From Pelagomonas calceolata (Eukaryota): 64,000 nt of DNA. The position numbers and the translations under genes are program-made. Position 1 is the first letter of the stretch. Each line of letters starts with the position of its first letter. The notes under the pieces were generated by a model. It saw only the letters and a program-made list of their open reading frames with translations. It searched no databases and was not told where the DNA came from. Shown in pieces: positions 3,069 through 53,000 of this stretch. The stretch is taken from assembly GCA_918797485.1 (NCBI GenBank), contig CAKKNE010000002.1, positions 3,906,001 to 3,970,000 on the forward strand, in the 5' to 3' direction.

Positions 3069-3779
3069 ATGGCAGCACCACCCATAATATCTGCCGCACG
3101 CGGCGCTGACGTCGAGACGCTCCGACGATTGCTTGCGGAAGGTGTGTCGCCAGATGAAATAACGTGGGGTTTCGGTAGAACGCCTCTTCATTGGTTGTGC
3201 AATCCCGACACCTTCAACCCGGTTATTTCCGTGAGTCCTAGTGAGGTCAGTGACTTCGTGACCTGCTTCAAGCTCCTTCGCGAAGCCGGTGCAAATTTGG
3301 AAGCGGTCGATGGTTGGGGGTACACACCACTTCAATGTGCGGCTTACAGTGAATTCCCCGAGTTGTTATCGTTGCTAGTTCAAGCCCGCGTTAATTTGGA
3401 TGCGAGAAGTAACGTTGGTACCACAGCGCTGCACCGTGCAGCACGTGTGTCAGATAAGAGGGCCGAAGATTGCGTCGACGTTCTCCTGGCCGGCGGTGCT
3501 TCCGTGAACGCAAGAGATAGCTCCGGAGAGACACCTCTCGACGTGGCACTCTCACATCATTGTCGCCGTGTGTGGCCTTTATTACTCCGCGCGGGCGCTG
3601 AGATCCCCACGAACAACACGCACCCGTACATCGTACGAGTCAGAAACGCCGGCAGCTTCAAGAAATACGCGCAAGCCCACCTGGCGAGGGTCGCGAAAAC
3701 TGTCGAGTCGAAGCTCGGCCTCCCCGCCCGGCCCGCGCGCCTCGTCGTCGAGTTCTGGCATCACGCGGGCTACTACTGA
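3069..3779 (+). CDS. Ankyrin repeat protein
   Basis: GRTPLHW, GYTPLQCAA, GTTALHRAA, GETPLDVA ankyrin repeats. Confidence 0.9.
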   Translation: MAAPPIISAARGADVETLRRLLAEGVSPDEITWGFGRTPLHWLCNPDTFNPVISVSPSEVSDFVTCFKLLREAGANLEAVDGWGYTPLQCAAYSEFPELLSLLVQARVNLDARSNVGTTALHRAARVSDKRAEDCVDVLLAGGASVNARDSSGETPLDVALSHHCRRVWPLLLRAGAEIPTNNTHPYIVRVRNAGSFKKYAQAHLARVAKTVESKLGLPARPARLVVEFWHHAGYY

Positions 3780-3801
3780 GTAATTTCACATGTTTCACAC
3801 A

Positions 3802-4509
3802 TTACCCTCCGCTCACGACGCAGCACGGGCACCCCTGGGGGTGCTCCGCCGCCGCGCGCTTCTCCGCCTCGGCGCGCTCTCGTACCGAAACGACGTGCGC
3901 CAAAATCTCCTCCGTCATGCGGATCGTCTCGCGGAGCTCGTCGAACTTCCCCTCGAGGAGCTTCTCCTGGTCCGGCGTCAGGTCGCCGTGCTCCCGCTTC
4001 AACGCCATGGCCCTTGCTAAATTCGCGCCGTACTGCTGGAGGTTCCTTCTTAAAGTCGCCTCGTCCGGCAGGTCGGGCTTCGGCTTCGGGGCCGGGGCCC
4101 AGCCCGCGCCGGGCGCCTCGGGCTTCTTCGAAGGTGGTGGCGGCTTCGGCCTTTTACGCCGCTTCGGTCGCTTCTCAATGAGCCGCCGCTTGCGGCCCGC
4201 CTCGCCAATAATCATAGCTATCGCGAGCGTCGTCAAAGCCAGCAGACCGTGCGCCGCCTGCGTCCGGCGCGGCGACCACCTTCCCACATCCTCCATCATG
4301 TCAGAGAGCCACCGTGTGGGTGAGGTCGCATAGTACACGCACCCGTCGAGCACTTGTTCGAGCGTCGGGGGCCAGGGCGCGTCGTCCGTCGCCTGGGTCC
4401 GCTTCCAGAGGAAGTACCACGTAATCAAAGCCGTGACCACTCTTGTGAAGAGCTTGCGTTTCCTTCTGCCCTTGCCGTGGACGCTGCCGCTCAGCATACT
4501 GGCTGGCAT
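3802..4509 (-). CDS. Hypothetical membrane protein with C-terminal coiled coil
   Basis: ATG-started 235-aa ORF, two hydrophobic segments, convergent with the ankyrin gene; no family recognised. Confidence 0.6.
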   Translation of the reverse strand: MPASMLSGSVHGKGRRKRKLFTRVVTALITWYFLWKRTQATDDAPWPPTLEQVLDGCVYYATSPTRWLSDMMEDVGRWSPRRTQAAHGLLALTTLAIAMIIGEAGRKRRLIEKRPKRRKRPKPPPPSKKPEAPGAGWAPAPKPKPDLPDEATLRRNLQQYGANLARAMALKREHGDLTPDQEKLLEGKFDELRETIRMTEEILAHVVSVRERAEAEKRAAAEHPQGCPCCVVSGG

Positions 4510-38468: not shown

Positions 38469-38927
38469 GGTGTGCTCTGGCAGTGCGTTGCTCTTGCAAT
38501 GCAATGCAACTACCGCTTAGGTTTGAATTTTGAGCTGCGGTCTGCAAGGCCGATGAATTATTATTAATGAACAGTGACTTGCCGTTCTAAACTGCCGCGT
38601 CGGCTTCGCGTACGCTGCTCAGAGCTAGGCTGGTGTGTGGCATGATGAGCTCCTCGAGCAAATCGCGCCCGGTGCTCGAGAGGTCTCTACTTCGACTTGA
38701 TATGTATCCCTTCACGGTGCGACGCATGGCTGGCCCTGAAAAAATGCGGCTCGTAGCTTTGGAGACGTGCCCCAGGCGAGCTATTTTGGTCCGCAATTAC
38801 GGCACGCACAGCTGCGTGCACGCCGCGGCTGCAGCAGTATTCGACGCATCGCTGCGTTTCCTGTCGCTATCCGAAGTTTGAACCGTCGCCGCGACCGGCA
38901 GCAGGAGTACAAGCAGTAGCAGCCAGC

Positions 38928-40576
38928 ATGGCGCCGGCGACACCAGATCTCGAGGCCCAGGTCCTCGCGGCCTTACAATCAACGCCAAAATTCGACACCT
39001 ACGCGCAAGCCAAGGCGTTAAATGTCGACCACCAGGCGCTCGTCGGAGCCGTCAAGTCGTTATGGGCCGACGGCTACGTGACCATGGACCAGAAGAGTTG
39101 TTCGTGGCTCAACGCCACGAAGGAGGGCTGCGACATCTCGAAGAACGGCTCGCCGGAGTATAAAGTGTATGCCGCGGTCTCCGCGGCCGGATCACTACCC
39201 GTCGCGGACCTCGAGAAGAGTGTAGGCAAGGCCAGCGCCAAGGTCGGTCTTGGTGCCGCCATGAGAGAAAAATGGCTCAAGAAGGGTGGAGACGGTAGCC
39301 TGTCGGTGGCGAAGGAAGGGGTTGCCGACGCGACGCGCAAGATGCTCGAGCCCTTCGTTGGATTGAGCGAGCCGCCGGCGACGCCTCCAGTACTACAAGC
39401 GAACGACGAGAAGCAATTATTAAGACGAAAATTACTCAAAAAAGAGACTTTGAAACAGTTCGAGGTCGCGAAGGGTGCCAATTATTCCTTGGAACGCAAA
39501 AGGAAGCAGGGCGACTTGTCGGTGGACATGTTGAGAGATGGGTCCTGGAAGACGGCGGATTTTAAGGCCTACAACTATAACGCCGTCGGCGCGCCCGTCG
39601 GCGGCGGCTACTTCCAGCCTTTGTTGAAAGTGAGGGCAGAGTTCAGAAAAATATTGATGGGCATGGGCTTCGAGGAGATGCCGACCTCCAAATGGGTCGA
39701 ATCGAGTTTCTGGAACTTCGACGCGCTCTTCCAGCCGCAGTCGCATCCGGCTAGGGATGCCCACGACACGTTTTTTGTCAAGGAGCCCGCTTCCACGCTG
39801 AAGTGGCCCGCGGACTACTACGAGCGCGTGAAGAACATGCATGTAAGTGGTGGTAGTGGTAGTATCGGCCACCGGTGCCCGTTCGACGAGGGTGAGGCTC
39901 GGAAACAAATATTAAGGACGCATACCACGGCGGTGTCGGCTAGGATGTTGTACCAGCTCGCGAACCGCGAGGGCGGCTTCCGGCCGGCGAAGTACTTTTC
40001 GATCGACCGCGTGTTCCGGAACGAGACGATGGTGCGCGTCGGCGTCCCTTTTGTATTTTGATTCGCGTCGATGGCGCGATGTGGCGCGGCCGCGACGCCG
40101 TCGGCGCGGTGATGCCGACCCCCCCGCACGCCATCGACGCGATACACAAGACGCGACCCCCAACAACGCAGGACTCGACGCACCTCTGCGAGTTCCACCA
40201 GGTCGAGGGCCTCGTCGCGGACTACGACCTGAATCTAGGTAATCTCAAGTGCATCATCCGGACCTTCTTCGCCGAGATTGGGATTACGCAGCTGCGCTTC
40301 AAGCCCGCGTTCAACCCCTACACCGAGCCGTCGATGGAGGTGTTCGGCTACCATCCCGACTTAAAAAAGTGGACGGAGATCGGGAACTCGGGCATCTTCC
40401 GGCCGGAGATGCTCGCACCCATGGGGCTGCCGCCGAACGTGAGGGTGATCGCGTGGGGCTTATCGCTCGAGCGGCCGACGATGATCAAGTACCGCATCGA
40501 CAACATTAGGGATCTGTTCGGGCACAAGGCCGAGCTCGCGAAGACGGAAGCGGCGCCGATCTGCGTGTTCCCCTAG
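38928..40576 (+). CDS. FARSA: Cytosolic phenylalanyl-tRNA synthetase alpha subunit, 2 exons (intron 40032-40171)
   Basis: [67 protein letters not shown]. Confidence 0.96.
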
Positions 40577-40778
40577 TGTAAGCTTTCGGATACGCGTAGT
40601 TCTTCGCCCTGGGAACGGGTTTTTCAGCTTATGGCGACTCTTTTAGGACGCCCGAGCACGACCTGACAGCACAGTTTAGGGCAGGCGTCTAACAAAGGTG
40701 TGGCCCTGTCGCTCCTCGCGTCCCGGGAGGCCGCTGTTCAGCGACACGAAACGTCGAAACCACCCACTGCAATTGGCT

Positions 40779-41831
40779 ATGGCGAAGAAGAACTACTACG
40801 CGGTCGCCTCGGGCAAAAGGACCGGCATTTTCGACTCGTGGGACGAGGCCAGGCCCTTAGTGGAGAGAGTCCGCGGCGCGCTACACAAAGGCTTCGCGAC
40901 GCGCGACGAGGCGGAGAAATGGCTCGCGGAGCAATCTGGCGGCAGAGGCGCGGAACCGGCGCCGGGCGACGCGGCGCCCGGGGCGCCGCCGCCGCGCCCG
41001 CGGCTCGGGAAGACGAAGGTCGGCCGTCCGGCCGGGAACCGCGACGTCGCCGCCGACCTCGCGGCCGCGATGCCCGAGGCCCTGGCGCGCCAGCGGCGGG
41101 ACGTAGCGAGGAGCGCGCCCTCTCCGGCGGCCGGCGAGCGGCGCGACTTCGGCCTCAACCTGCCGGCCACCGCGTCGCGCGACGCCTACCGGAACGCCGT
41201 GGGCGCATTCCCGGGCATGGCGGCCCACCGGCGCCCGGCCGCGCCCCCCGTCGCCGGGGCGCCGCCGCTGCGCCGGCGCGACGGGCCGTCCGTGGGGGAT
41301 TTGCTAGAGGGACCGCCCAAGAAGAAGGCCCGGGCCGACACCGCGCCGGCGCCCTATCGGCCGAGGCTGACGTCAGCTGGTATAATACCGGCCGAGAATG
41401 GTGAGACGTACTTATACGGCGTGCCCCTGGGGCCGCCCCGAGGGATCACGGGGAACTCCGAAAAATTTGACCGTTTGCCGGCGCGCGACCAAGAGGTGTG
41501 CAGGGCGAGAGACGACTTTGATGCTAATGACGGAGAATACTTTCCTAACCTAACGGGCACACTTACGGACTGGGAGAATGAGATTTACTTGTATCTCCTC
41601 AAGCAGTACGGCCAGCCCCTGACAGGAAACTTCTACGCGGTTCGTGAGTTCAAACGGGAATTCGGATATCGCAAGTGGGAGTCGGTGAGAACTCACGTTA
41701 ACCGGTTCAACGGGGGCCAGACGACGCACAAGACGGGACCCCGGGGCGGCAAGATCAAGAGCACGGTGTACAAGGATTGGGTCGCGGCGCACGGGGGCGA
41801 GTGGGTCGGGTTCCAGTGGCGGCCCTTATGA
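40779..41831 (+). CDS. Protein with an RNase H1 N-terminal hybrid-binding (viroplasmin) domain and an unknown C-terminal domain
   Basis: YYAVASGKRTGIFDSWDEARPLV...HKGFATRDEAEKWL; no RNase H catalytic domain seen. Confidence 0.8.
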   Translation: MAKKNYYAVASGKRTGIFDSWDEARPLVERVRGALHKGFATRDEAEKWLAEQSGGRGAEPAPGDAAPGAPPPRPRLGKTKVGRPAGNRDVAADLAAAMPEALARQRRDVARSAPSPAAGERRDFGLNLPATASRDAYRNAVGAFPGMAAHRRPAAPPVAGAPPLRRRDGPSVGDLLEGPPKKKARADTAPAPYRPRLTSAGIIPAENGETYLYGVPLGPPRGITGNSEKFDRLPARDQEVCRARDDFDANDGEYFPNLTGTLTDWENEIYLYLLKQYGQPLTGNFYAVREFKREFGYRKWESVRTHVNRFNGGQTTHKTGPRGGKIKSTVYKDWVAAHGGEWVGFQWRPL

Positions 41832-41936: not shown

Positions 41937-43211
41937 TCATGACCCGTCCCATGGCGCCCCGAGCGGCGTCGGCCGCACGACCGACGCGACGAGGTCCGGC
42001 CGGGTACACGCGCCCGTCCCGTTCGCGGGCGGCCGGCCCGGGTCGCGCGCGACGCAGGCGCACGCCGTCTGCGCGGTACCGGGCAGGCGGCAGCAGCCGT
42101 GGGTCCGGTCGCGGCAGCACGGCTTCAGAGGCGGTACTGTCGGGTCGTCGCGGGCGCCGCGGTCCAGGAGCCGCAGCGCGGCCTCGGTCGCGGGCGACGC
42201 CTTCGCGTCCAGCTTCCGAGCTTGGGCGTCGAGCAGCGCGCGCCACGCGCTCCTCACCCACGGCTGCCGCAGGTCCAGCTTGTGGCCGCACGCGTGGCGC
42301 CGAAATATGTTGGGGTCCGTGCACCACGACTGCGTGCAGCCCCAGCAGTCTAGGTAGACTTGGCGTAGTTTCAAAAACGCCGCCGCCGCGCGAAGGATCG
42401 TCGGCGCGGCGACCTCGTGCGCGACGCCGCCGAAGACGCGCGCCGCCCTCGCGAGGTACGAAAACGCCTGCCGCGGCGCGTGGAACAAGTCGGCCTGGGC
42501 GGCGCAGACTTCGGCCGTGCCGAGTTCTCGGGCGGCTTCCTTGGCGAAATCGCGCACGCCGTGGCCCCAGGTCCAGTCTTGTTCATTCACGAGGTCCTCG
42601 AAACTCAGACACCCTTTGCCGTAGATGCGCAGGTGTTGGGACTCCGGCGGAGGCCCGGTCGGCGGCGCGTTGAGGCCCGCCGCGAGCGTCCAGATCGCGT
42701 CCGAGGGGAGCAAGCCTTTCGCAACCCGCCGCTGGAACGCGAGAGGCTGGATCCAGAAGTCCATGTGCGCCACGAGGACGCCCGACGGCGCGCGCGTGTG
42801 GCGCCAGGCCTTGCGCAGCCACTCCTTTCTCGGAGCGAAGACGTCTGCTCCATCAGCCTCCGCGAGATCCTCAAACAACCGCGCGTAGGTGGGCGTCCGG
42901 TGTTCGGCCCCAGCCCGGTCGACGAGGCAGCCCAGGCCGTGGGCGTCACAGTCGGTGGCGTTCAGCGGGGCGCAGGGGACCTGGCGCGGTCCGGCCCTGC
43001 CGTGGTAGACGCGGCCGCACCCCGGCTGGGGCCAGATGACGTACGCGACGCCGCCAAAGAACCGCTCGTAGCGGCGCGTGAGGTAGAAGCGGTCGCGCCG
43101 GGCTACGGTGAGGACGAGCAGCACTTTTTGGAGTGGTTGGTGCTGTCTCTGCTGTTGGGGCGTGGCGTTGGTTATCGCTGCCAGCAGGAGTGTCGCCCGC
43201 CACGGCTGCAT
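41937..43211 (-). CDS. Secreted protein, possibly DUF288/STELLO-like glycosyltransferase-related
   Basis: Signal peptide; GVLVAHMDFW, AQADLFHAP, HEVAAPTI, HKLDL motifs recalled from that family, unverified. Confidence 0.55.
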   Translation of the reverse strand: MQPWRATLLLAAITNATPQQQRQHQPLQKVLLVLTVARRDRFYLTRRYERFFGGVAYVIWPQPGCGRVYHGRAGPRQVPCAPLNATDCDAHGLGCLVDRAGAEHRTPTYARLFEDLAEADGADVFAPRKEWLRKAWRHTRAPSGVLVAHMDFWIQPLAFQRRVAKGLLPSDAIWTLAAGLNAPPTGPPPESQHLRIYGKGCLSFEDLVNEQDWTWGHGVRDFAKEAARELGTAEVCAAQADLFHAPRQAFSYLARAARVFGGVAHEVAAPTILRAAAAFLKLRQVYLDCWGCTQSWCTDPNIFRRHACGHKLDLRQPWVRSAWRALLDAQARKLDAKASPATEAALRLLDRGARDDPTVPPLKPCCRDRTHGCCRLPGTAQTACACVARDPGRPPANGTGACTRPDLVASVVRPTPLGAPWDGS

Positions 43212-43829
43212 GCTCTTCGAGTCACATGCTGCCCGGCACCACGTATGCGCTCAGTAAATGCTCTGCCTGCAGAGAGGCTGCATGCAGAGCTGCCTGCCTC
43301 TCCCTGGCCCTGATGCTAGAGGCCGCGTCACCCGAGCGCTGATCAGCGAGAGCCCGCCTTGATGCGTCGCCGGAGTGCCCGACGAGTGCTAGGTCACTCC
43401 CTATTTTAATCTAGCAGAAATGAATGTACGACGCGGGGGCCCCGAGGATCGCCCAGGACCATCCCCAGGGTAAGGATTAGCACGTAGCTTCGGCGTAGCC
43501 CGAGCGGTCTCTTTGTATGTAGGGTCGGTATAGGGTACATGTATTTTTAGGGATTATTTATTTATTTTCCCAATATACATATGTATGTGTACCTTAGGGG
43601 TCGGTGAGGGTAAATGCACTTTTTTGCGACTAATTTTTTAGGGTCGTCCTAATATTTACGGTCCGTATAGGGTAAAATGTATTGGTTAACGTATTTTTGG
43701 ATTATATATGTCCTTGACTGCTCGGCGTTCGGTCATCGTTTTTGGCATTGCGCCCAACGGCCTTGAAAATTGGTCTGCTTGACGTACGGGCCCTCCCAAG
43801 CCAAAAAAAAGCAAAAAGAAAGCGAAGCA

Positions 43830-43900
43830 TCGTTCAGCCGGGAATCGAACCCGGGGACAGTCGATGGCAACGACTGATGTTGCCACTACATCACTAAACG
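43830..43900 (-). tRNA. tRNA-Gly(GCC)-like gene, copy 1, atypical acceptor stem
   Basis: Cloverleaf CGTTTAG-TG-ATGT-AGTGGCA-ACAT-C-AGTCG-TTGCCAT-CGACT-GTCC-CCGGG-TTCGATT-CCCGG-CTGAACG-A; downstream T5/T8 Pol III terminator. Confidence 0.9.
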
Positions 43901-44695
43901 TGTTTTGGCGCGCGTGGATGGTTGTTTTACCAGGGATGCTGGTTCAGCTGTGGGGAGACCTGGCTAACTTTAGCTTAGCAGTTCTGTTTCGTCGCGGCGG
44001 AATTTAGCAAAGTAGCAAAGCGAGGCGGCATTTAAAAAAACAATATAGGGCGCGCGCGTGCAAGTGCCCGTGTACAGGCAGCAGCGACCCGAAGACAGCA
44101 AAATCGGCACTCAAAGCGCTGCAAAAAGCGGGAGACCGGAGCAGCAGCGTAAGCACCATGGGGCGACAGCAAAGCAGCAGGGTGGTGGTATTCAGGGCGG
44201 TCGCGGCGATGGCGTAACGGTGGGGCAGACACTCTCGGCGGGCTCCGTCGGGGCGGCGTCGCAGTGGCGCCATCTTCGCGCGGGCTGGGCGGCGCCGCTG
44301 CCGGTGAGTCCATGCGCCTCCCTATGCTCCCTATGTTGTTCTGCTGTCGCGCGTGAAGCGGGTGCAGGGCAGGCGGCCCGCCAGCGTCACCGGGTCGCTT
44401 GCGAAAGGCGCGGCGTGTTCCTCTCTGAGGCCGCTGAGCGAGGCCGTGGCGCGACATTCGACAACGCCCTCTTCGAAATCCGCCGGAAGCCGTCTGAGGC
44501 CGGCGCCCTCTCGACCGCGGGGGCTGCCCTTGTGCTGCGTGCGGTGCTCCGCCATGGCCGCGCGCGGTCAACAATGATGGGTAAACATTGTTGAGAAGCT
44601 GTGCTGTCGCCGGCACCGCTCCGCGCGCACGCCAAGGCCGAACTCGACGGCCGCGGGTTCATGTCGGCTAGTGGGTCTTTTCACTAGGCGACGAG

Positions 44696-45052
44696 TGAGG
44701 GGCTAGCCCGCCATACACTCGACGAAAAAGCGCTGAGGACTAGCTAGCCCGCCATTCGCTCGACGAAAAAGCGCTGAGGACTAGCTAGCCTACCGCGCAC
44801 CCGGGCCCGTCGCGCAAGTGCTGAGGACTAGCTAGCCCGCCATGCGCTCGACGAAAAAGTGCTGAGGACTAGCTAGCCCGCCATTCGCTCGACGAAAAAG
44901 CGCTGAGGACTAGCTAGCCTACCGCGCACCCGGGCCCGTCGCGCAAGTGCTGAGGACTAGCTAGCCCGCCATACGCTCGACGAAAAAGTGCTGAGGACTA
45001 GCTAGCCCGCCACACGGCTTGACGAAAAAGTGCTGAGGACTAGCTAGTCCTC
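44696..45052. repeat. Higher-order minisatellite: 8 copies of AAG(C/T)GCTGAGGACTAGCTAG(CC) with two linker types (41/47-bp units)
   Basis: Core starts at 44728, 44769, 44816, 44857, 44898, 44945, 44986, 45028; ends in the perfect palindrome GAGGACTAGCTAGTCCTC (45035-45052). Confidence 0.95.
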
Positions 45053-45089
45053 GGCCGCGCGGGGTGTCGTTGGGGCGCCGAGTTGGGGC

Positions 45090-45554
45090 GCCGGCGGAGG
45101 CACGGTCGGCGCCCGTTGAGGCCCGCCGCGAGCGTCCAGATGGCGTCCGAGGGGAGGAGGCCTCTCGCGACCCGGCGCTGCGCGGAAATTACATGGGAGT
45201 TACGAGCGACGCGTCGGCGACGCGTGTCTGAGACTTCTAAGCCACCGTCACGCCATCGCCGCGACCAGTTGCTTGAAAACACCGGCGCGCGCCTGAAACG
45301 CGAGGAGCTGGAGCCAGAAGTCCATGTGCGCCAGTGCAGCGCCACGCGACGCCATCGAGCGACGTGGCGTCGATCGATGGCATGCGGGTTCAGCTGCCGA
45401 AGAACCGCTCGTAGCGGCGCGTCAGGTAGAAGCGGTCGCGCCGGGCTACGGTGAGGACGAGCAGCACTTTTTGGAGTGGTTGGTGCTGTCTCTGTTGTTG
45501 GGGCGTGGCGTCGGTTATCGCTGCCAGCAGGAGTATTGCCCGCCACGGCTGCAT
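45090..45554 (-). pseudogene. Truncated, rearranged paralogue of the 41937-43211 gene
   Basis: 5' part near-identical; a diverged internal piece encodes AHMDFWLQLLAFQ|RRVARGLLPSDAIWTLAAGLN; an internal segment and the whole 3' half are missing. Confidence 0.8.
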
Positions 45555-46172
45555 GCTCTTCGAGTCACATGCTGCCCGGCACCACGTATGCGCTCAGGAA
45601 ATGCTCTGCCTGCAGAGAGGCTGCATGCAGAGCTGCCTGCCTCTCCCTGGCCCTGATGCTAGAGGCCGCGTCACCCGAGCGCTGATCAGCGAGAGCCCGC
45701 CTTGATGCGTCGCCGGAGTGCCCGACGAGTGCTAGGTCACTCCCTATTTTAATCTAGCAGAAATGAATGTACGACGCGGGGGCCCCGAGGATCGCCCAGG
45801 ACCATCCCCAGGGTAAGGATTAGCACGTAGCTTCGGCGTAGCCCGAGCGGTCTCTTTGTATGTAGGGTCGGTATAGGGTACATGTATTTTTAGGGATTAT
45901 TTATTTATTTTCCCAATATACATATGTATGTGTACCTTAGGGGTCGGTGAGGGTAAATGCACTTTTTTGCGACTAATTTTTTAGGGTCGTCCTAATATTT
46001 ACGGTCCGTATAGGGTAAAATGTATTGGTTAACGTATTTTTGGATTATATATGTCCTTGACTGCTCGGCGTTCGGTCATCGTTTTTGGCATTGCGCCCAA
46101 CGGCCTTGAAAATTGGTCTGCTTGACGTACGGGCCCTCCCAAGCCAAAAAAAAGCAAAAAGAAAGCGAAGCA

Positions 46173-46243
46173 TCGTTCAGCCGGGAATCGAACCCGGGGA
46201 CAGTCGATGGCAACGACTGATGTTGCCACTACATCACTAAACG
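46173..46243 (-). tRNA. tRNA-Gly(GCC)-like gene, copy 2
   Basis: Identical 71-nt sequence and poly-T terminator. Confidence 0.9.
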
Positions 46244-46504
46244 TGTTTTACAGCGTGGGATAGCTGGTTGTTTTACCAGGGATAGCTGGTTCAGCTGTGG
46301 GGAGACCTGGCTAACTTTAGCTTATAAATTGTTTCGTCGCGGCGGAATTTAGCAAAGTAGCAAAGCGAGGCGGCACGCGAAAAAACAATTGACTGCTCGG
46401 CGTTCGGTCATCGTTTTTGGCATTGCGCCCAACGGCCTTGAAAATTGGTCTGCTTGACGTACGGGCCCTCCCAAGCCAAAAAAAAGCAAAAAGAAAGCGA
46501 AGCA

Positions 46505-46575
46505 TCGTTCAGCCGGGAATCGAACCCGGGGACAGTCGATGGCAACGACTGATGTTGCCACTACATCACTAAACG
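46505..46575 (-). tRNA. tRNA-Gly(GCC)-like gene, copy 3
   Basis: Identical 71-nt sequence and poly-T terminator. Confidence 0.9.
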
Positions 46576-47574
46576 TGTTTTACAGCGTGGGATAGCTGGT
46601 TGTTTTACCAGGGATAGCTGGTTCAGCTGTGGGGAGACCTGGCTAACTTTAGCTTATAAATTGTTTCGTCGCGGCGGAATTTAGCAAAGTAGCAAAGCGA
46701 GGCGGCACGCGAAAAAACAATATAGGGCGCGCGCGTGCAAGTGCCCGTGTACAGGCAGCAGCGACCCGAAGACAGCAAAATCGGCACTCAAAGCGCTGCA
46801 AAAAGCGGGAGACCGGAGCAGCAGCGTAAGCACCATGGGGCGACAGCAAAGCAGCAGGGTGGTGGTATTCAGGGCGGTCGCGGCGATGGCGTAACGGTGG
46901 GGCAGACACTCTCGGCGGGCTCCGTCGGGGCGGCGTCGCAGTGGCGCCATCTTCGCGCGGGCTGGGCGGCGCCGCTGCCGGTGAGTCCATGCGCCTCCCT
47001 ATGCTCCCTATGTTGTTCTGCTGTCGCGCGTGAAGCGGGTGCAGGGCAGGCGGCCCGCCAGCGTCACCGGGTCGCTTGCGAAAGGCGCGGCGTGTTCCTC
47101 TCTGAGGCCGCTGAGCGAGGCCGTGGCGCGACATTCGACAACGCCCTCTTCGAAATCCGCCGGAAGCCGTCTGAAAGCCGGCGCCCTCTCGACCGCGGGG
47201 GCTGCCCTTGTGCTGCGTGCGGTGCTCCGCCATGGCCGCGCGAGCAAGAGAGTGCTATTGGTCTCGGGGTTTGTTTTCGCTCGCTTCGCGCGCGAGGACC
47301 ACACCCCGCTAGGATGGTTTGTTTTAAGGCATGTTGTTTATTCGGCCGCGCCTACTACGCCATCGTCGCCTTTGCTACGAGTCGACGCAACAGCGTTCGA
47401 AAAACCCGAACCCGAACCCATTGAAAATCAGCGCCAGCGGCCCGGCCGTGCCGCGAGGCAGCCCCGCCCCACCCGCAGCGATCGTCAAGAGCCAAAACGA
47501 TCTCGCAGTGGTAGGCACACGGCAGGAGACGGACGGCGGCAGCCCGAGGGCAGCCCAAAAACTCATAGAGCAGG

Positions 47575-50077: not shown

Positions 50078-53000
50078 ATGGCGCCTCCTCGGAGAGGCGG
50101 CCGAGGCGCTGCCAAGCCGGCGCAGCGCACGCACGCGGCGCCGAACGGCCGCGCGGCCGCGCCGACGCCACCTGCCGCGGGCGGCGGCCGAGGCGCCGCG
50201 AGGCCGGCGCAGGCGAGGCCGGCGCCCGCGGGGTTCCGGGTCGTGACGCCGGCGCCTGCGCGCCGCGCGGTCGTCACGCCGCCGCCGCGCGACCCCGAGC
50301 CCATCGCCCAGTACGTGCGCAATATTGAACAAGACAACGAGGAGCGCCTCGAGTGCAAGATCTGCCTCGACGCGCCGCGGGCCGTGCGCTTCCAGAAGTG
50401 CGGCCACTGCTGCGTCTGCACGGACTGCTACAACGAGCTGCTACAACTAGCGCCGGAGCACCGCAAGTGCCCGCTCTGCAACGTTCACATCGGCGATGCG
50501 CACTCCGTGCTCAAGACGCAGGCGGCGCTCCAGACCTTCATGGCGTCAAGGACGCGGGGCACGAACCGGCAGCAGCGCCGCGCCGCGGAGCAGCGCAAGG
50601 ACAAGGCGCAGCGCGTGCGCAAGCTGAGCCACGCCGAGGAGAAGAAGGCCCTGCAGCGCGGCCGGCGGACGCAGCTCGCCGACGGCGCCACTTTATTAGA
50701 ATACAAGGGCCTCTACGCCATCCTCGAGGGCGGCCAGCGGGCGACGCCCTTCGTCAAGCCGCCGCCCGTCTTACCGGCCGCGGCGCCGCCGGCGCCGCCG
50801 CGGCCGCCGGCCCCGCGGTCGGCCGCCGCCGCGGACCTGTTACTGCGCGCGGCCGTCGGCGCCGCGCCGGCCTACGCGCCGCCGCCGCGGCCGGTCCCGG
50901 TACCGCCGCCCCAGCGGTGGGCGGGCCCGCCGCTCGCCGCGCACTACGTCGTCATCGTCGACCACTCCGGCTCCATGAACGCCAAGGACTGCCTCGACGA
51001 CTGCGGCGGCAAGATTACACGGTTAGAAGCCGCCTACGACACATTACTAAACTCCTACGTGAAGGAGACGCGGGAGAACGCGCCGGACGGCAAGGACATC
51101 GTCGTATCCTTAGTAACGATGTCGACGAAAGCCGAGTGCGTCTTCGAGCGCTACCGCCTCGACCTCGCCGAGGACGCGATCGGCAACCACGCTAGGGTGG
51201 CGTACGCGCACGACCACGGCAATTATCTGCCGGCGCTGGCCGAGGTCGAGCGCCTCTTTAGCCAGCCCATCGACGCCGAGGGGTCCCACGCGCTCGGCGT
51301 TGTCCTACTAACGGACGGCAAGCCCTCGGACACGGTGACGGACCCGCGATTTGTGAGTCCGGCATTACGGGGCTACGACCGCATCATTGCGCAGCTCTCG
51401 TGGCTGCTGCGGGATCTCGAGCAGAAGGTCGACGAGCGCTTCCCACGCTTCGCCTGCAACTTACTGGGCATCGGCGCATCGCGGGCCGAGTTCAAGATCC
51501 TGGACGACGTCAACGCCGACATCAAGCGCGGGAGCGTGGACCACAGCGCGCTCGACTCGTCGCTGCTGTCGTCGACGATGACGTCCATGGCCACCACCAT
51601 GATGTCGAGCGTCCTCGAGACCTCGGTCTGCGCCGGCCGCGCCAAGCGCACGGTGCGCAAAGTTGCTCAAGAATCGGCCGACGCCGCGGCCGCCTCGTCG
51701 CCGCGGCGCCCGACCGAAGCCACGGACCCGTTCGACGCCGCACTGCCGTTCCTCACGCCGGCGCAGCGCCGGAACTTCGTCGATAACGACGTCACGTTGG
51801 ATTGCCTCGCGTTGCTGCACGACGAGGACCTCGACGACCTCCTGGAGGGCGACGACGGGGCGAAGTCGTCGTTCCGGATGCGCTACCCGGACCCAGCGGC
51901 CGCGGAAAGGGGCCCGTCCGTCGAGGAGGCGGCGGAGATGGCGCGCCGCGAGGTCGAGCGCCTCCGCGCGGAGGAGGAGGCGCGCGAGGACGCCCGCACC
52001 TCGTCCCTGGGCGAGAAGCTGGACGTCAAGGACCCGCACTGGCTCATCAGCGAGCCGGTCACGGGTGCGACGCTCTGGAACGGCGAACGGTTAGCCTGGC
52101 GAGACTTCGACGCACCGCGGATTCTAGCGAAGCGGCGCAAGTACTTCTCGGACGGCGCCGAGCGGCTGGCCTACCGCGGGGCGCTCGTCGAGCCGAACAC
52201 CGCGACGATTCTCGAGGACGTGGTTTTCAAAGAGTCAAAATTCGAGGAGGATCACGTCGTCGTGAAGCAGGAGGACGAGTCGGACGACAGCGACGACGAC
52301 GATGACGAGGAGGGCTTCCTCGCCCGAATGACGGCGGCGAGGAGCGGCGGGTTGGCAGCGAAGCATCGGGAGAAGCGCGACGTCAAGGAGAACGCCCACT
52401 CGGCCTACCACATAACCTTCTGCAAGGCGCAGTTCGAGGCGGGCCAGCTCGCCGTGGAATTTAACGCGGCGACGGAGCGGTGGGGGCGGCTGCCGCGCGT
52501 CACGTTCGTGACGTCCTCTGTCTACAAGTTCACGACGGGCGTGCAGGGCGAGCTCGAGACGACGCGCGTGTTGGGCGAGCCGCGGCTCCGCGGCGAGTAC
52601 AAGAAGTTCACGAACAACGCGGGCAAGAGCGCCGACTTCCCGGGCTCGGACATGGACTGCGGCCCGGTCGTCGAGCCCAAGCAGCGGGCGCAGCCGCAGC
52701 AGGGCCTGTCGGGTCTCGGCGCGATCGGCGAGGAGGACGAGGAGGACGAGAGTGACGACGAGCCCGAGCACCTCACGGCCGGCGAGGTGCCGTACAGTGC
52801 ATAAACAAATACTACGGCGCCTTCGACCTCACTGCCGTACATCACACATTATGCACACAGGTGCCGCAGGCGTTCTCGCACTTCAGCTACGAGTACTCCA
52901 GCGGCGCGCGCATGGTCTGCGACCTGCAGGGCTGCTTCGACCGCGAGCGGGGCTTCGAGCTCACGGACCCGTGCATGCTGTCGAAGGTCGGCCGCAGCGA

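Follow-up and report, generated by a model that had tools for sequence, protein, structure and literature searches.

The window, by which we mean the whole 64,000-nucleotide stretch analysed here, carries three genes that ARAGORN calls as tRNA-Gly(GCC). All lie on the minus strand and each has runs of five and eight T residues 13-27 nt downstream:

43830..43900, minus strand: tRNA-Gly(GCC) copy 1, with C1:G72, G2:C71, U3:A70 and A73; called by ARAGORN and Rfam
43883-43893 and 43841-43851 (approximate), minus strand: A box and B box of copy 1
43803..43817, minus strand: likely Pol III terminator of copy 1 (T5 and T8 runs)
46173..46243, minus strand: tRNA-Gly(GCC) copy 2, same sequence as copy 1
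46146..46160, minus strand: likely terminator of copy 2 (T runs)
46505..46575, minus strand: tRNA-Gly(GCC) copy 3, same sequence as copy 1
46478..46492, minus strand: likely terminator of copy 3 (T runs)

The three genes are identical 71-mers whose cloverleaf is fully paired. Their acceptor stem reads C1:G72, G2:C71, U3:A70, U4:A69, U5.G68, A6:U67 and G7:C66, followed by A73, and A10:U25 is also present; the T-loop and G18/G19 are standard. The paired cloverleaf, the first three acceptor pairs, A73 and A10:U25 had been described in the original prediction, together with the internal A and B boxes and the terminator, and all are confirmed here. On a 151-nt stretch, Rfam RF00005 aligned over model positions 1-71 with zero mispairs and scored 48.9 bits against a gathering threshold of 29. 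By sequence, the internal boxes and the downstream T run are those of a Pol III type 2 gene. A 56-nt core pattern matched three times in the window, compared with a mean of 0.00 in 100 shuffles. The gene was missed in Rfam scans of the whole 64-kb window, of 4.5 kb and of the L231 locus of a related species, most likely through filter loss, and as these misses illustrate, tRNAs of such a type can be lost by fast annotation filters. Editing of the 5' end was rejected by reasoning, the stem being already fully paired. In RNA run X15, a 363-nt contig spans the gene and both flanks; contigs of this kind cannot show transcription, and DNA was possibly present, so we gave it no weight. Elsewhere in the window, an ARAGORN call of tRNA-Ala(GGC) at 50821-50920 sits within a RING/VWA/alpha-kinase frame conserved in locus L246 and is likely a false call.

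The three copies arose from a duplication of about 2.3 kb and an exact 332-bp tandem duplication, and a repeat array separates copies 1 and 2:

43050..44044: direct duplication (about 1 kb), member 1, 97.3% identical to 45393-46389; contains copy 1 and part of a neighbouring gene
45393..46389: direct duplication, member 2; contains copy 2
46057..46720: exact 332-bp tandem duplication, source of copies 2 and 3 (46057-46388 repeated exactly)
44702..45047: repeat array separating copy 1 from copy 2, with about eight units of 41 nt and a 16-nt core found nowhere else in the window

In addition, 43714-44564 recurs at 46389-47242. The 5' flank of copy 1 has diverged, as originally observed: over the 100 nucleotides upstream, it shares 84% identity with copies 2 and 3. 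From 43256 to 43906, the units holding copies 1 and 2 show zero differences, so the identity of the three bodies, itself correctly reported, is explained by recent duplication or conversion and is in itself no sign of selection. The tandem junction forms its own contig in isolate runs X1 and X3, which belong to two studies, one of them possibly the source of the window. More generally, the window stretch is present in isolate runs (28-71 Mb of contigs) and in marine metagenomes. The window has a GC content of 63.8%; for the Pelagomonas calceolata genome, PMC9481584 gives 63.6% GC and 32.4 Mb.

Three identical copies within 2.7 kb had suggested the head of a young tRNA-derived SINE that amplifies locally. 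However, both flanks, including part of a protein gene, were duplicated together with the tRNA, and orthologs occupy the same, syntenic locus in another species, with no shared tail and with flanks that cannot be aligned. The contig depth of the gene in isolates, which is only a hint, is also just two to three times that of a single Gly(CCC) gene. We therefore give a SINE origin hardly any credence.

Several other elements were observed around the tRNA genes. In the related species, a counterpart of the 41-nt array (about 77%) separates the two tRNA copies, though the surrounding flanks are unalignable. Outside the window, the array is located at L231 3162-3310, L238 361-509 and L249 2686-2927, and it may act in regulation or recombination. 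AT-rich sequence containing a number of TAGGG and TTTAGGG words, resembling degenerate telomere repeats, follows downstream of copies 1 and 2 (43516-43672 and 45859-46015). In two field contigs (L230 754-1112 and L249 1-782), sequence 73-80% similar to window 3423-4195 lies upstream of the tRNA, which suggests a mobile or polymorphic insertion at the tRNA locus. A cytosolic-type phenylalanyl-tRNA synthetase alpha gene occupies 38757-40576, about 3.3 kb from copy 1, a proximity that is probably coincidental, and an RNase H1 N-terminal (Cauli_VI) domain is encoded by a reading frame at 40680-41828, near the duplicated region.

To look beyond the window, we scanned metagenomes with a pattern that fixed this D-arm and T-arm and left the acceptor stem and anticodon free; canonical GCC genes with G10 were beyond its reach. 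Of the 27 loci recovered, 11 have the anticodon GCC and 8 have CCC; the other 8 are AT-rich and have UCC or ACC. G72 was found in all 11 GCC loci, and C1 in all 10 that cover base 1 (L247 is one base short). The 11 loci collapse to four distinct sequences. Five of them (L230, L236, L239, L242 and L249), on independent metagenome contigs, are identical to the window gene. Another four (L231, L238, L246 and L247) come from one related species that shares the neighbouring genes, for the most part at 74-85% nucleotide identity; its tRNA, found at the syntenic locus in two inverted copies around the related repeat array, is identical to ours at 70 of 71 positions. The 100-nt flanks of these orthologs match at 0.43-0.48, the level of shuffled sequence, and fourfold sites in the neighbouring gene agree at 179 of 276 (65%), giving the 70/71 identity of the tRNA a P of about 2e-12 under neutrality.

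The two further GCC variants retain C1:G72 and are altered in pairs 2-5 on both strands: L235 has C1:G72, G2:C71 and G3:C70, and L245 has C1:G72, U2:A71 and C3:G70. Their source organisms are characterised just as GC- and CpG-rich, like the window. C1:G72 is thus kept in all four GCC variants. The Gly(CCC) tRNA of the lineage begins A1:U72, C2:G71 and has its D-arm, T-arm and A73 in common with the GCC tRNA. Across seven aligned GCC and CCC tRNAs, all 147 of 147 cells were paired and each of the seven acceptor pairs showed two-sided changes; these tRNAs are related to one another, so shuffle counts are not to be read as probabilities.

The argument that paired changes on both strands speak against simple decay is thereby upheld and, as judged from these alignments, G1:C72 and C2:G71 have truly been lost, and their loss is a conserved trait rather than decay. 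A decayed pseudogene or an assembly artefact could be invoked for a gene that Rfam missed in the larger scans. Against this stand the 48.9 bits on the short stretch, the identical gene in independent metagenome contigs and the tandem junction in runs of two studies, and the idea is largely refuted by the conservation, the neutrality test and the covariation; we consider it extremely improbable.

Among the loci with CCC anticodons, in L237 (about 2270-2449) and L234 (about 900-1079), the tRNA-Gly(CCC) follows 4-5 nt after the 3' part of a gene resembling tRNA-Leu(CAA). The complement of its 3' acceptor strand lies about 40 nt upstream of the D-arm, ARAGORN makes no call there, and the gene could be decayed, interrupted or dicistronic. 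L244 has an intact Leu(CAA) close to its Gly(CCC).

How unusual is this acceptor stem for a glycine tRNA? The eukaryotic glycine identity set is listed as A/U73, G1-C72, C2-G71, G3-C70, (G10:Y25):G45, C35 and C36 (PMC9976931). According to PMC9908026, the pairs G1:C72 and C2:G71 are conserved across the tRNA-Gly of all three kingdoms, and charging drops strongly when either is mutated; animal Gly acceptor stems begin GC (PMC9023262). The window tRNA has the anticodon bases C35 and C36 and the eukaryotic discriminator A73, and only these three elements of the list are fully satisfied; G1:C72, C2:G71, G3:C70 and the (G10:Y25):G45 core are absent, with A10:U25 in place of the last. Its body is nevertheless that of a glycine tRNA: over 56 positions, the best match was 50/56 for Gly, 42 for Thr and 26 for Tyr, in a Gly-enriched set of 361 tRNAs that includes 31 loci from a one-base-longer pattern, excluded from the acceptor-stem counts.

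Of these deviations, A10:U25 does not deserve the special status it was first given. Among viral tRNAs with the same D-arm pattern, 55 of 71 have NCC anticodons, and A10 occurs in 7 of 103 unselected viral NCC tRNAs; the canonical-stem Gly(CCC) of L223 has A10:U25 as well. The first pair is a different matter. None of the 103 distinct viral NCC tRNAs had C1:G72 in register (A1:U72 was found in 11), with 12 rows of apparent C1 being register slips from a longer D-loop and not scored as C1:G72. Direct scans of viral contigs for a Gly tRNA with C1...G72-A73 and for the window tRNA type returned nothing, and scans for viral GlyRS returned nothing besides one chance match. A side observation from AT-rich virus-like contigs (L229, L241 and viral loci L022 and L029) is a tRNA-Gly with the rare ACC anticodon beside UCC copies.

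The combination of C1:G72, A73 and G34 had been flagged as a set of determinants for eukaryotic TyrRS, and the literature supports this for the three elements (PMC9976931; PMC1934993). This raises the idea that TyrRS charges the tRNA, partly or mainly, with ambiguous decoding of GGC and GGU as the outcome. All three elements are indeed present; however, the set as originally given omitted U35, described as a critical determinant (PMC9976931), and the window tRNA has C35/C36 instead. In addition, L245 alters pairs 2-4 again, and the body lies nearest to Gly and far from Tyr.

Codon usage offers a direct view of the decoding role. We aligned an enzyme encoded in the window, whose best named relatives are pelagophyte (Chrysophaeum 77%, Aureoumbra 74% and CCMP2097 68%), with 119 homologs. 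Its 20 invariant glycine columns are encoded by GGC (8), GGT (5), GGG (6) and GGA (1). The share of GGC/GGT at these columns (13/20) does not differ from that among the Gly codons of the 17 Pfam-positive frames of the window (503/691, of which GGC makes up 400), revealing no avoidance (P 0.45), and at none of the 19 GGC/GGT positions is tyrosine the consensus. As far as these codons tell, the organism uses the standard genetic code and depends heavily on a reader of GGY. Heavy insertion of tyrosine is hard to reconcile with GGY at invariant glycines, so routine mis-acylation with tyrosine is not borne out, and we regard even partial Tyr charging as quite improbable.

Whether the window-type genes are the only readers of these codons was addressed by a census, as had been proposed. 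A search of runs X1, X3, X4 and X15 at 80% likeness found one other similar locus, whose ends match Gly(CCC) (A1:U72, C2:G71). A probe for canonical GCC tRNAs had no match in runs X1, X2 and X3; this zero may be false, and viral Leu, Ile and Arg tRNAs in the same probe likewise had no match in X1-X3. In the mixed run X4, the probe detected a canonical-type tRNA at a depth of 319, compared with a depth of 9 for the window locus; this canonical-type tRNA probably comes from another organism. The census is incomplete: it contains no Gly(UCC) gene, though GGA codons are used. It favours, and does not prove, that the window-type genes are the only GCC genes.

Since the GCC census is no proof of absence, the tRNA might instead be specialised or poorly charged, serving for instance as a regulatory RNA or a non-ribosomal donor of Gly, and coexist with a canonical GCC tRNA that escaped detection and carries out the decoding. 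Two observations would fit such a role: C1:G72 is retained as though under selection, and more than one copy lies around a conserved repeat array in both species examined. On the other hand, two different probes detected no second GCC gene, the D-arm, T-arm and A73 are common to the CCC tRNA of the lineage, the T-loop and G18/G19 are standard, and the change in GlyRS described below is clade-wide. We consider a specialised role unlikely, though less so than tyrosine charging.

We then examined the synthetase. In human GlyRS, Arg283 is reported, in PMC9908026 as a second-hand source, to make three hydrogen bonds with G1 and G71, and a conserved arginine is described as reading C2-G71 (PMC10164559). 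We picked position 283 from this literature before any pelagophyte GlyRS sequence was obtained. The P. calceolata homodimer-type GlyRS (P0408), which we infer to be that of the window's own organism, aligns with the human enzyme over about 670 residues, and its K312 corresponds to human 283 in a gap-free alignment. Lysine occupies this position in all 12 sequences of the pelagophyte clade (clade support 1.0, FastTree), which includes clusters named P. calceolata, Aureococcus anophagefferens, Pelagophyceae CCMP2097 and Chrysophaeum taylorii. The three sister sequences, Octactis among them, all have arginine, as do 102 of 107 other ochrophyte sequences (Lys in 4, His in 1) and 110 of 115 sequences from other eukaryotes (Lys in 2). 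Counted over 50%-cluster representatives, Lys is found at 283 in 13 of the 134 that could be scored. Five double-length rows were dropped from these sets, and two palm rows and two motif-less fragments were excluded.

Within motif 2, position 283 is the sole change among 21 conserved columns in pelagophytes; the anticodon domain keeps 29 of 32 conserved columns, and over the whole enzyme 9 of 283 conserved columns changed in the clade, eight besides the Arg283 site. Judged from the alignment and tree, the arginine-to-lysine replacement is conservative, a single evolutionary event in this clade and sporadic elsewhere. Independent replacements were seen in P0524 (Triparma verrucosa), P0540, P0520, P0527 and P0446, all with Lys except for His in Chrysoparadoxa; besides Triparma, two of the clusters that carry Lys independently group with diatoms. 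An interrupted eukaryote-type GlyRS gene at L273 1100-3430 lies in a contig binned as Gammaproteobacteria and is likely a contaminant. The lineage-specific GlyRS code offered among the original options has thus gained a counterpart in the enzyme, namely Lys in place of human Arg283.

Taken together, these results make it quite probable that pelagophytes charge this tRNA with glycine as their ordinary GCC isoacceptor, using a GlyRS whose recognition of the acceptor stem is relaxed. The original prediction had set an ordinary Gly-charged GCC isoacceptor of the lineage against its own more exotic options, and this case is most likely the true one; such a status removes those options and makes the change of identity itself interesting. 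The genes would be transcribed by Pol III from the internal A and B boxes to the T run, and the transcript would be processed and receive its CCA. Glycine charging would then proceed mainly through C35, C36 and A73, together with the overall shape. Once the arginine bonds to G1 and G71 were lost, other pairs may no longer have been penalised, and the stem could then have drifted by compensatory paired changes. A single GlyRS would have to accept C1 or A1, and G2, U2 or C2. C35 and C36 would keep TyrRS off the tRNA despite C1:G72 and A73, and the local duplications may provide dosage for the commonest Gly codon. Such swaps need not be lethal to charging: in a bacterial enzyme, C2-G71 is an identity element, yet the change to G2-C71 is reported to have a modest effect (PMC10464925).

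Pure relaxation does not predict that C1:G72 should persist in each of the four GCC variants, so there is scope for an active new contact. Glycine identity may thus have been rewired and not just relaxed, with Lys283 reading G72 of the inverted first pair in the GCC tRNAs; this would explain why C1:G72 is kept while pairs 2-5 turn over. We put it forward tentatively and lean against it. Were it true, the main cytosolic Gly tRNA would be unreadable by a canonical eukaryotic GlyRS and would carry three Tyr determinants that the cell must neutralise, and the lineage would present a natural, class-wide change of the acceptor-stem code along with a candidate orthogonal tRNA.

Under the preferred reading of relaxed recognition, it is likely, as far as the sequences allow, that the pelagophyte lineage relaxed an otherwise near-universal rule of glycine recognition. 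Here, an abundant alga of the ocean has both pairs inverted in what is likely its main Gly tRNA, and it belongs to a class whose enzyme is without the arginine; the combination represents a natural experiment on how an identity rule changes. Whether relaxation of the enzyme preceded drift of the tRNA becomes testable, with Triparma and the two diatom-grouping Lys clusters as replicate tests, and a tRNA poorly read by a host GlyRS may be of use in code engineering. Neither this tRNA nor the Lys change turned up in a search of the full-text literature, with supplements, subscription journals and tRNA databases, which may list the genes, lying outside its scope; in the pelagophyte genome papers, the word 'tRNA' is absent from the main text.

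Compared with the eukaryotic tRNA-Gly(GCC) and alpha2 GlyRS described for yeast and human (PMC9976931, PMC9908026, PMC10164559), the pelagophyte pair is alike in the GCC anticodon with C35/C36, in A73, in a 4-nt variable loop and in Gly-type D- and T-arms. It differs in having none of G1:C72, C2:G71 and G3:C70, in A10 for G10 and in Lys for Arg283. With the eukaryotic and archaeal tRNA-Tyr set (C1-G72, A73, G34, U35), the window tRNA has C1:G72, A73 and G34 in common; it has C35/C36 and not U35/A36, and a Gly-like body. Human mitochondrial TyrRS, described as indifferent to pair 1-72 (PMC9976931), provides a precedent for lost first-pair specificity; that enzyme is organellar and of class I, whereas the pelagophyte case affects pairs 1-3 of a nuclear tRNA and involves a class II enzyme. 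By analogy, the nearest precedent is the loss of A20 in the diatom tRNA-Arg/ArgRS system (Igloi 2022, PMC8975779). The text of that study contains neither Gly nor glycyl, and for Arg it regards Pelagophyceae as ordinary. The diatom case involves another amino acid, the D-loop instead of the acceptor stem and two synthetase paralogs; in both cases, however, nuclear tRNAs of stramenopiles dropped a near-universal element, and in diatoms, too, the synthetase was inferred to have become insensitive to the lost element.
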